From NCBI GenBank assembly GCA_964016885.1, contig OZ024741.1, forward strand, positions 272,800,001-272,864,000: a stretch of 64,000 bases of DNA, written 5' to 3'. A model generated the notes under the pieces. That model worked only from the letters and a program-made list of their open reading frames with translations. It was not told where the DNA came from and ran no database searches. Positions 4,741-7,284 of this stretch are shown piece after piece (within the stretch, counting starts at the first letter, position 1; every line of letters begins with the position of its first letter). Source of the DNA: Eledone cirrhosa (Eukaryota). The position numbers and the translations under genes were made by a program.

Positions 4741-6230
4741 AATGGGGTTTTGCTGCTGCGCGTTTGTATGCGCTTGTGGTTGTGATGTTGTGATGTTGTG
4801 ATGAGTTTGTGCTTATGTATAGGTGCAATTGATTTACTAGAGATATTTTTGTGGTTGATCTTGCGTATGTGTGATTCTATGTTAGCTGCTGTTGAGAATG
4901 AGAGTTTTATAGTAGATCTATTGAGTATTTTGTGATATCTATGCGAGATAGGGAAGTGTTTATCTATTAGTTTAAAGAATGTAGAGGGCAGTCTAGTTTT
5001 TATAGAGGAGTTGAATATTGGGTTGAACCACAGGTATTTTCTTTGTCTGTTTCTTCTATTGTTTCTTGGGTTTACGTTATTAGTGTTTTGGCCGTTTACT
5101 CCAGGTGTTACATGTCTAACCCTATGTCTAGTCAAGCTATTCCTATTATTATGTGAGCGGTTGGAGTAGTAATTACTAGGATTGTTTATGTTGTCCTTAT
5201 TCACTATATACTGTAGTTTATCTTTATGACCGGCCCTACTTAATGCTGCATTATAATAGTCAGCATGCTCGTTAAAGATTTCTAGGTTTGAGGATAAGCG
5301 GGATATTCGGAGGGATATACTACGTGCTATGGATTTAATTATGGATTTGGGGTGATTTGAGTTGTAACTAATGTAGGCAAGATTTCCCTTATTTTTGTGG
5401 AAAGGTTCTATTAATCCAGTATTTAGATTTAGAGTTACATCTAGAAAATTTACCTTCTTATGGTTTAGTTCGTAGGTAATACTTAGGCCTAGTTTTTTTA
5501 AGAATATTCTAATATTTTTCCTTAGTCTTTCCATGCTCTGGTTGTTTAGGTTCCTAGCTATAAGTAACGTGTCGTCCCTATAAATTCCTCCTTGGAGGTT
5601 ACTGAATTCCTTATGTAGGTTGTGTGCTATGAATAGCCCCACGATATCTGTGATTTGCGCAGAATCATTTGATCCCATTGTTATATCGAAGCTATTTATT
5701 CTATCCTTTCTTACCCAGTAGTTATTTTCAAATTTTATGATAGTCCTTCTAGCCGCTATTATTATTTCAATTTCATCATGGGTAAGATCAGAGTTATTTT
5801 GGGCAAATATAAGCGCCTTATCTAGGGTAGCTGGGGATATGGAAGCATAATAGTCATCTATATCAAATTGTATGAAGTTACACGTCTCCCTATTTTGTAT
5901 TTTATTGAACCATTTAATTGCCTCGTTAGTGTTGCCCCATAAATTGATTTCTAGTTTACCCTTTACTTGTGCAATTACCCTATCTAGAATGTTTTTGCTA
6001 ATTTTACCTATGTCTGACTTGGATGGGCATATTAATCTAATGGTGGGATTAGTTTCAAAGTTATTTTTGTGATCCTTCAGGTTAAATGTAGGGTTGCACG
6101 GGGTAAGCGGTTCGGTCCTATCTGAAATTCCGAGTTTATTAACTATCTTGAGGCCCTCCATGTTAATGCTGGTGAGTGTAGATTCATTTGTTTTTTTATA
6201 TTTTTTTATGTAGTTCACGCTGAATAAAGT
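4704..6230 (-). pseudogene. Penelope-type reverse transcriptase (N-terminally truncated)
   Basis: Motifs KDHKNNF..PTIRLICP, FIQFDIDDYYASI, FDITMGSNDSA, GIYRDD, VNFLDVTL and YISYNSNHP. The clade may be Nematis-like; this is from recall and unverified. Confidence 0.9.
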
Positions 6231-6254
6231 TATTGTATGTGTTAATGTCCATAG

Positions 6255-6797
6255 AGTATAATAATTAGTATACTTCAATCTGGCTAAATTTTCTTTTGCA
6301 ATATATATACAGATGTGTTGGTATCTGTGTTTCATCACATACATATTAGTTTATACACGGCTCAGTGGGTATTTTCCTCCTTCGAGCTAATTCCATTGTA
6401 AAAGAATTCATTACCTTATCAATATAACTGCTCCTAATCTGAGCTGAAAGCCGCCTCATATATACGACTGTTATTTCTAGCAGTACGGTTATGAGACTAG
6501 CTAGATACTGTTAAACCATGTGCGTCACGCAGTCTTTTAAATTATTTAGAAGTGAAGCATATCAATTTGTCCCTAGATGTTTACTGAGGAGAGCAGGACA
6601 TGATATTCCTACACTTATTTATCTCGAAACATATTTGGATTTTAAAGTTTAAACTTATCTACGGAGCAGGTTTGATTTTGAAATTTAAATGTGTCTAAAC
6701 ATCATAGCCTTTTGGCAATGCAGTTCGTCTTTGTTGATTTATTATTTTAAATCGATATGGACAAACTGTAGTATAATAATTAGTATACTTCAATCTG
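6255..6797 (+). repeat. 515-bp terminally redundant unit (28-bp direct repeat) containing a hammerhead ribozyme
   Basis: AGTATAATAATTAGTATACTTCAATCTG at 6255-6282 and at 6770-6797; hammerhead at 6575-6660. Confidence 0.75.
6575..6660 (+). ncRNA. Type I hammerhead ribozyme, canonical CTGAGGA core, GUU cleavage triplet
   Basis: Stem I GTTTA(6579-83)/TAAAC(6650-54), extended by AGAT/ATCT; CTGAGGA(6584-90); stem II GAG...CTC with inner AGGA/TCCT; GAAAC(6626-30)...GTT(6647-49). Confidence 0.72.
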
Positions 6798-7284
6798 TGT
6801 ATATATATATATATATATATATATATATATATATATATATATATATATATATATATATATATATATATATGTGTGTGTGTGTGTGTGTGTGTGTGTGTAT
6901 GTGTGTGTGTGTGTGTGTGCGTAAATATATGCGTATATTAATTCGTTAACCTCTGTATTAACTCTACAACTATTGAGCTTTGACAGTGGTCCCACTCATG
7001 TATACTGTTGAAGATGAAGAGAAAGACTGTAAAAACTAGCTTATCTTTATAATTTAAAATTGATATACACTACGATACTTTTTGCCTTATGACAGCTAGT
7101 TTTACACGCCGTAACATTAGATACATTATATACCCCCCCACCTAAGTAATGTCAGGGTCTCCTTAAATAATTTATTGATAGCATTGTTGTAATTGTTGTT
7201 ATTGTTCTAATTGAATGCCATTACTACTTCATATAGTAGCCTGTATTTTCTTTTCTTTTCTTGCCTGTGTATTTTCTTCATTCT

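Follow-up and report, generated by a model that had tools for sequence, protein, structure and literature searches.

A Penelope-like element joined to a long-helix hammerhead retrozyme in Eledone cirrhosa

The Penelope-like host and its two arms

The window, the whole stretch of DNA analysed here, is composed of 64,000 nt of Eledone cirrhosa contig OZ024741.1. It contains a real chimera of two known element kinds, a Penelope-like element (PLE) and a non-LTR retrozyme. The retrozyme differs by its long helix III and its explicit PLE insertion signature. The main Penelope-like arm lies at 3140..6260 on the reverse strand, the retrozyme piece at 6255..6797 on the forward strand, and a second, inverted Penelope arm at 6798..7453, also on the forward strand.

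The main arm is young, with family copies 98-99% identical, and is 5'-truncated at 6260. On the reverse strand it is made up of a tail (3140-3315), a pLTR (3316-~3963), ORFs of a GIY-YIG-type region (4240-4812), and ORFs of an RT region (4704-6260). The RT region is open in two frames and is thus frameshifted. The initial annotation placed the fading of RT homology at ~6230, but the homology ends at 6260. In other family copies, the reading frame runs on upstream of this point as ordinary RT N-terminal sequence. Pfam and PDB sequence searches with the host RT and EN frames returned no match. By its motifs, a putative RT followed by a C-terminal GIY-YIG region and a predicted hammerhead in the pLTR, the element is a candidate EN+ PLE.

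The inverted arm is a pLTR that begins at 6798, close to where it was originally placed. It runs from a microsatellite to the equivalent of the family end at 3316 and is followed by (TA)n. A hammerhead-like motif is predicted at 7290..7395 on the forward strand by reading the sequence, with a CCGAAGA core and a 3-bp stem I. This motif is unrelated in sequence to the retrozyme hammerhead and has 812 exact 19-mer matches in the animal's own genome.

The 3' ends of the host family fall at two fixed sites, 3316 and 3140. One of each is found in 32/41 head-to-head junctions scored by script. Among the other nine, seven have a cut or other end and two were scored as like-with-like, of which L168 is real and L151 is a chaining error of the script. 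The family targets (TA)n, and an insertion is made up of two head-to-head arms, one per fixed 3' end. The window element carries one end of each kind (3140 and 7453). Its two pLTRs are one substitution apart outside simple repeats, and they have in common a rare variant (3482/7287) that occurs in 1 of ~95 other aligned copies. Because the family ends are used, the pLTRs are nearly identical, and the rare variant is common to both, the two arms are assigned to one recent event.

The 515-bp retrozyme unit and its hammerhead

The segment between the arms is 543 nt long and belongs to a non-LTR retrozyme family with a 515-bp unit, of which it spans 1.05 copies. It starts and ends with a 28-mer (forward strand, 6255..6282 and 6770..6797), which is repeated exactly at a spacing of 515 and has no other occurrence in the window. 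The initial annotation described a 515-bp segment bounded by this perfect direct repeat. The repeat is indeed perfect, but it does not bound the segment: the first copy is the end of one unit turn, and the 28-mer is internal family sequence found at every unit border.

Two other accounts were rejected. The 28-mer is not a target-site duplication, an alternative raised at the outset, because family copies hold it at every unit border and only 6 nt match Penelope. Nor is the segment the normal 5' region of this Penelope family, since it is absent within 1.5 kb from 29/29 other copies.

A search of the 3.0-Gb genome with the segment gave 1662 first-look candidates, with full-length matches of 95-99% among the 40 scored. 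An exact 19-mer of the hammerhead core has 475 genome matches, and a control has 0. The locus sample is composed of 90 loci: the 30 best matches (window included) and 60 from the first 100 listed core matches. These hold 148 arms in partial or full tandem arrays of a unit of ~515-518 bp, the longest reaching up to 5 turns (L015), with 132 complete hammerhead passes across 89 loci. The tandem or permuted copies that had been proposed as a check are therefore present, and the segment is a retrozyme-type unit.

No ORF of at least 100 aa is found inside the unit. No RT is joined upstream of the arms in the 89 other loci, no unit runs into an RT/EN frame in those loci and 14 sister-family loci (a small family sample), and no autonomous parent was found among other PLE families in the sampled loci. 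The family is thus made up of dispersed, multi-copy, tandem type I hammerhead units with neither coding capacity nor an LTR. Judged by these sequence features, it fits the published non-LTR retrozymes.

Animal non-LTR retrozymes are likewise non-coding, AT-rich, tandem type I hammerhead units, which form monomers to multimers in hundreds of dispersed copies and co-occur with PLEs, according to the available text of Cervera & de la Pena 2020 (PMC7229834) and Li et al. 2026 (10.64898/2026.07.22.740005). The 515-nt unit compares with invertebrate circles of ~170-400 nt (PMC7229834) and consensus lengths of 51-972 bp (10.64898/2026.07.22.740005). Circular RNA is described there for published retrozymes; the present family was identified from genomic DNA, and no RNA run is listed among the public sequencing runs that contain it. 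Its helix III is long and stable, in contrast to the 1-2 bp given for animal non-LTR retrozymes.

The window piece belongs to the youngest subfamily and is 99% identical to L002 and L022. Four private substitutions (6420, 6437, 6575, and 6666) are absent from sampled loci. As first noted, the unit has no meaningful similarity to a 591-bp hammerhead unit elsewhere in the window, and its one similarity to the Penelope pLTR is a 17/19 match (E=0.01) between 6728-6746 and the pLTR end (7440-7453 / 3312-3330). Each matching site lies ~35-60 nt past its own predicted hammerhead cut. The match may be due to chance or to a common recognition motif.

The segment was initially said to contain a complete hammerhead cleaving after U6649. 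The core CUGAGGA (6584-6590), the 3-bp stem II (6591-6593/6623-6625), and GAAAC (6626-6630, with GAAA at 6626-6629) are all present, but energy, pair probabilities, and sister families speak against the fold and cut then proposed. In the better fold, the type I hammerhead spans 6576..6703 on the forward strand. Its 8-bp stem I pairs GAUGUUUA (6576-6583) with UAAACAUC (6696-6703), and its long helix III (6629-6694) has more than 20 pairs. The predicted cut motif GUC (6693-6695) closes helix III, with cleavage after C6695. The earlier cut and stem I partner (6647..6654) fall inside this helix. The assignment draws on folding, pair conservation across the 132 passes, and compensatory stem I changes in two sister families.

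Constrained energies are -36.4 kcal/mol with the 8-bp stem I and GUC at 6693-6695, versus -18.9 kcal/mol with a 5-bp stem I and U6649. Pair probabilities are 0.48-1.0 for stem I and helix III in the former fold and 0.0 for the latter; the 3-bp stem II has probability 0 in both. Among dinucleotide shuffles of both strands, 0/5000 fold with a stem I of at least 5 bp and 0/5000 with one of at least 8 bp. Rfam returned no hammerhead family at the segment at E-values up to 10, likely because the long helix III lies outside its models.

In the family to which the window copy belongs, conservation is the same for both folds (132 passes), so this sample alone is indecisive on the fold. Sixty of its loci were chosen by exact match to 6576-6594, and invariance there is by construction. 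Subfamily changes mostly preserve long-helix pairing, with one position breaking a pair in 46/131, and the H position of the cut site is C or A only.

Sister families occur in L123, L125, L135, and L196-L201, with units of ~550-560 bp, the same long helix III, and a compensatory stem I. The first (~74% identical) has stem I GGTACCTA/TAGGTACC and the core UUGAUAA, and it has lost the inner site. The second has stem I AGTGCTTG/CAAGCACT, the 5' strand of which was predicted from the 3' strand before the sequence was fetched, and its inner site is unpaired. Stem I is therefore made up of three different 8-bp sequences in three families and is paired in all. Because of this compensatory change in two sister families, the fold with the 8-bp stem I and a cut after C6695 is preferred. 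Cleavage after U6649 is contradicted by the same covariation and is most likely wrong. The motif thus combines a CUGANGA and GAAA core, an NUH site, and covariation-supported helices. Two points count against the fold: stem II is only 3 bp long, and the free fold of sister family 2 does not form the long-helix structure.

Fungal and protist PLE type I hammerheads have a large helix III, most metazoan type I hammerheads have a helix III of 1-2 bp and act as dimers, and a U3-A8 swap is a reported natural variant, as far as the available part of Cervera & de la Pena 2014 (PMC4209133) describes. The hammerhead here resembles the fungal and protist ones in its large helix III, which would allow monomeric cleavage, and in the U3-A8 core of one of the two sister families. 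Unlike them, it sits in a non-coding repeat of a 3.0-Gb genome.

Insertion of the retrozyme family

The retrozyme family has two fixed 3' ends on the forward strand, S1 at 6355 and S2 at 6426, the putative RT starts 1 and 2. S1 is the exact end of 49/148 arms and S2, which adds a 71-nt tail, of 44/148; the window copy uses neither. Both ends adjoin (TA)n, and diverged subfamilies align to just short of both. At head-to-head junctions, S1 is paired with S2 in 36/48 (36/36 of those classifiable), like is never paired with like, and 12 have other ends; L084 is counted twice among the 48. Single arms end at S1 or S2 in 42/45. Of the other three, one is truncated where its locus stops, and two belong to a diverged subfamily in which the alignment breaks off. 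Non-canonical 3' ends are found in 13/96 paired arms, and one arm in L020 ends at (CA)n left of (TA)n. Overlaps of 1-15 nt occur at 37/48 arm junctions.

Two fixed 3' ends, a tail on one arm, an inverted 5' arm, and a (TA)n target together form the signature of PLE mobilisation, which suggests that a PLE enzyme moved this retrozyme family. PLEs have been proposed as mobilisers of animal non-LTR retrozymes (PMC7229834; bioRxiv 10.64898/2026.07.22.740005). In the sections available, the argument draws on co-occurrence, shared hammerheads, and pLTR similarity, and the mechanism is left open by the latter source.

Published PLEs show one-sided tails, inverted 5' copies, and a preference for (TA)n (PMC3846280, PMC8557442), and in vitro the PLE tail lies between two internal RT start sites (Frangieh 2024, PMC11167929), in the portions of these papers at hand. 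Insertions here resemble those EN+ PLEs (Arkhipova 2013 PMC3846280; Craig 2021 PMC8557442; Frangieh 2024 PMC11167929) in the inverted 5'-truncated arm, the tail at one end, AT-rich/(TA)n targets, microhomology junctions, and two internal RT starts that define the tail. The tails of 71 nt (retrozyme) and ~176 nt (Penelope) compare with 30-40 nt in the EN+ PLEs described. Two fixed RT starts, head-to-head arms, and a PLE chimera do not appear in the accessible text of the retrozyme papers (PMC7229834, 10.64898/2026.07.22.740005).

Some 5' junctions (L002, L069, L073, and L195) start with a 26-138-nt inverted copy of their own flank, mostly across (TA)n. These short copies are like the products of snap-back synthesis.

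Origin of the chimera and its template

The two junctions are composed of short microhomologies. The start of the first 28-mer, 6 nt at 6255..6260, is common to the Penelope arm and the retrozyme and is therefore read as junction microhomology, with P(>=6 nt) at a random joint of 0.002. The right junction has a 2-nt TG (6796..6797), immediately to the left of the (TA)n that belongs to the pLTR; this match is weak (P 0.19). The 18-mer across the left junction is unique in the genome, and the right-junction pattern is also unique. Among 148 retrozyme arms, the window copy alone ends at 6797. It brings no (TA)n with it, and its position coincides exactly with the Penelope arm junction.

The segment was probably captured in the same event as the Penelope insertion, with a cDNA end switching by microhomology onto retrozyme RNA. 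Capture in one event is favoured because the 6797 end and both junctions are unique, the piece brings no (TA)n, and the Penelope arms represent one recent event. The likelihoods given here to four readings are judgements, not computed posteriors. Of the two routes first suggested, a template switch and a later insertion at (TA)n, the switch is thus the better one.

In the proposed sequence of events, an endonuclease would cut in (TA)n, and both DNA ends would prime cDNA on Penelope RNA. The right-hand cDNA would run from 7453 through the pLTR microsatellite to 6798 and then move via TG onto retrozyme RNA at 6797. It would copy 543 nt of retrozyme, crossing the hammerhead cut site, and pair at 6255-6260 with 6 nt of the left-hand cDNA. 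On a repeating template, the positions of the two switch points would account for the 28-bp repeat.

A later, target-primed retrozyme insertion at the (TG)(TA)n tract in the inverted pLTR, with its 5' end joined into the RT region and the arm junction deleted, is unlikely. It would suit a family that targets (TA)n and commonly nests beside other TA-targeting elements, and the tract here is long, with ~35 units in the inverted pLTR versus 12 in the other arm. Single-arm insertions apparently deleting target DNA (L096, L159, and L178), together with another apparent case at L210, also count toward it and against capture. However, a later insertion needs a non-canonical 3' end where nearly all single arms are canonical, priming at TG rather than TA, and a deletion ending in the opposite arm. 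It must also follow soon after a very recent Penelope insertion, and one substitution between the pLTRs leaves little time for a second event. Deletion-type retrozyme insertions elsewhere keep canonical ends and (TA)n. The apparent later nested insertions at L096 and L210 have both, unlike the window copy.

Capture by switching gains from several loci. The 6-nt left microhomology resembles the overlaps at retrozyme arm junctions. L157 has an extra fragment of its own family at the arm junction, with its start in the same pLTR microsatellite. A further structure of three parts, bounded by (TA)n, is found in L087 and can also be explained by two later events. It lies at G000:C1:249972123-249978123 (~1880-3376) and is composed of (TA)n, the inverted arm of a different element that also bears a hammerhead, a short duplication in hairpin form, an 800-nt stretch of RTE-type LINE (97% identical to window 16426-17224), a 515-family arm, and (TA)n. 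Other counts weigh against capture. Foreign inserts are found at 0/40 other head-to-head junctions of the host Penelope, direct joins to the host family at 0/89 other retrozyme loci, and no hotspot of arm ends at the pLTR microsatellite, as counted by eye. In L210 (~1215-1227), a retrozyme copy lies 12 nt from a cut-off arm of the host family. The non-canonical 3' ends among paired arms, the (CA)n end in L020, the weak TG match, and the failure to find an autonomous parent in the sampled loci point the same way. A junction-spanning query gave no further chimera among 40 scored of 2283 candidates.

At L178 (~2107), L096, and L210, retrozymes and different PLE families are joined head to head or nested. 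The simplest account of these loci is later insertion that deleted part of the target.

A DNA-templated origin, in which repair at the arm junction copied 543 nt of a genomic retrozyme array and retrozyme RNA played no part, is improbable. The short inverted flank copies at 5' junctions in both families (L002, L069, L073, and L195) and the microhomology at both ends agree with a DNA template, but those fillers come from nearby and measure just 26-138 nt. A second copy is absent from the window, and no donor was identified, the four private substitutions being absent from sampled loci. An assembly join between two abundant repeats is very improbable. The left junction is unspanned by the listed pieces or reads of six public runs, which are probably from other individuals and are reduced-representation or fragmented; this weighs neither for nor against a join. 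Against such a join, the two arms have a rare variant in common and obey the family end rule, and the junction microhomology looks biological.

Capture by switching calls for a template that runs unbroken through the cut site and for 28 nt past one unit. The initial annotation took the 515 + 28 nt as a direct footprint of a circle. The 1.05 turns of unit agree with this, but they would equally result from a transcript reading through a genomic array. A circle is not required, because 48/122 retrozyme arms already hold the same contiguous 543 nt. Divergence is 1.40% within arrays versus 1.06% to the nearest other locus (71 arms), which does not separate circle from line. Arms that stop after one full turn are not in excess (5 vs 8.2 expected).

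The 5' ends of arms are more frequent at 6696-6720 (13 vs 5.5 expected, 2.4-fold, one-sided p=0.003). This test covers 122 arms after self, duplicate, edge-cut, and non-canonical arms were dropped, and the excess was noticed before testing. Among all 515 possible 25-nt intervals, the one beginning at 6693 ranks first, and no excess follows U6649 (7 vs 8.8). The excess 3' of C6695 supports the corrected, predicted cut site. It hints at a linear cleaved template or at a stall at the helix, which are indistinguishable here.

A circular template is plausible because RNA circles predominate in the animals examined in PMC7229834, according to the part available. That the Penelope RT left its own RNA and copied more than one turn of a covalently closed 515-nt circle, from a monomer-cleaving retrozyme group with a long helix III, is a tentative reading. 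If true, it would, taken with the family-wide pairing of two start sites, be direct genomic evidence of PLE enzymes reverse-transcribing unrelated retrozyme circles, and it would expose a retrozyme group with hammerheads that cleave as monomers via the long helix III. As a single case, the window chimera is suggestive and not proof of a circle.

LINE-1 template-switch chimeras (U6-L1) are insertions of an autonomous element fused to the cDNA of another RNA. Unlike these, the present chimera involves a different RT class, has microhomology at both ends, and holds its insert between two inverted arms. That PLEs jump between templates and pick up unrelated sequence between their pLTRs has already been proposed (PMC3846280, PMC8557442, PMC11167929); in contrast to the cases in the accessible text, the captured sequence here is a different hammerhead element. 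A search of mainly freely accessible main texts found no description of a PLE-retrozyme chimera.

In one genome, two young families, a retrozyme and a Penelope, follow the same insertion grammar, and at one locus they are physically joined. Capture by switching would support the idea that Penelope enzymes spread retrozymes. With a defined RT, an RNA template, predicted starts (6355/6426), and a predicted cut (after 6695), the locus would allow trans-mobilisation, and the choice between a circular and a linear template, to be tested in vitro. The chimera itself is a single dead locus with no evident function, and its element class is known.

Other repeats are present in the window. A 591-bp tandem unit occupies 376-2040, with ~2.8 turns, plus an inverted arm at 1-383. 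By reading, it has a UUGAUAA core and a palindromic loop III, and copies at 94-99% occur in L006, L014, L087, L101, L191, and L192. On this sequence evidence, it is likely another retrozyme family. A transposase fragment at 2138-3034, presumably mariner-like by its motifs, lies between ~166-nt inverted repeats and is inserted in (TA)n. A 48-bp minisatellite of ~33 copies (10700-12390) arose from a common short repeat and has several open frames. A LINE at 14472-17400, presumably RTE-type by its motifs, has endonuclease and RT frames broken by stops.
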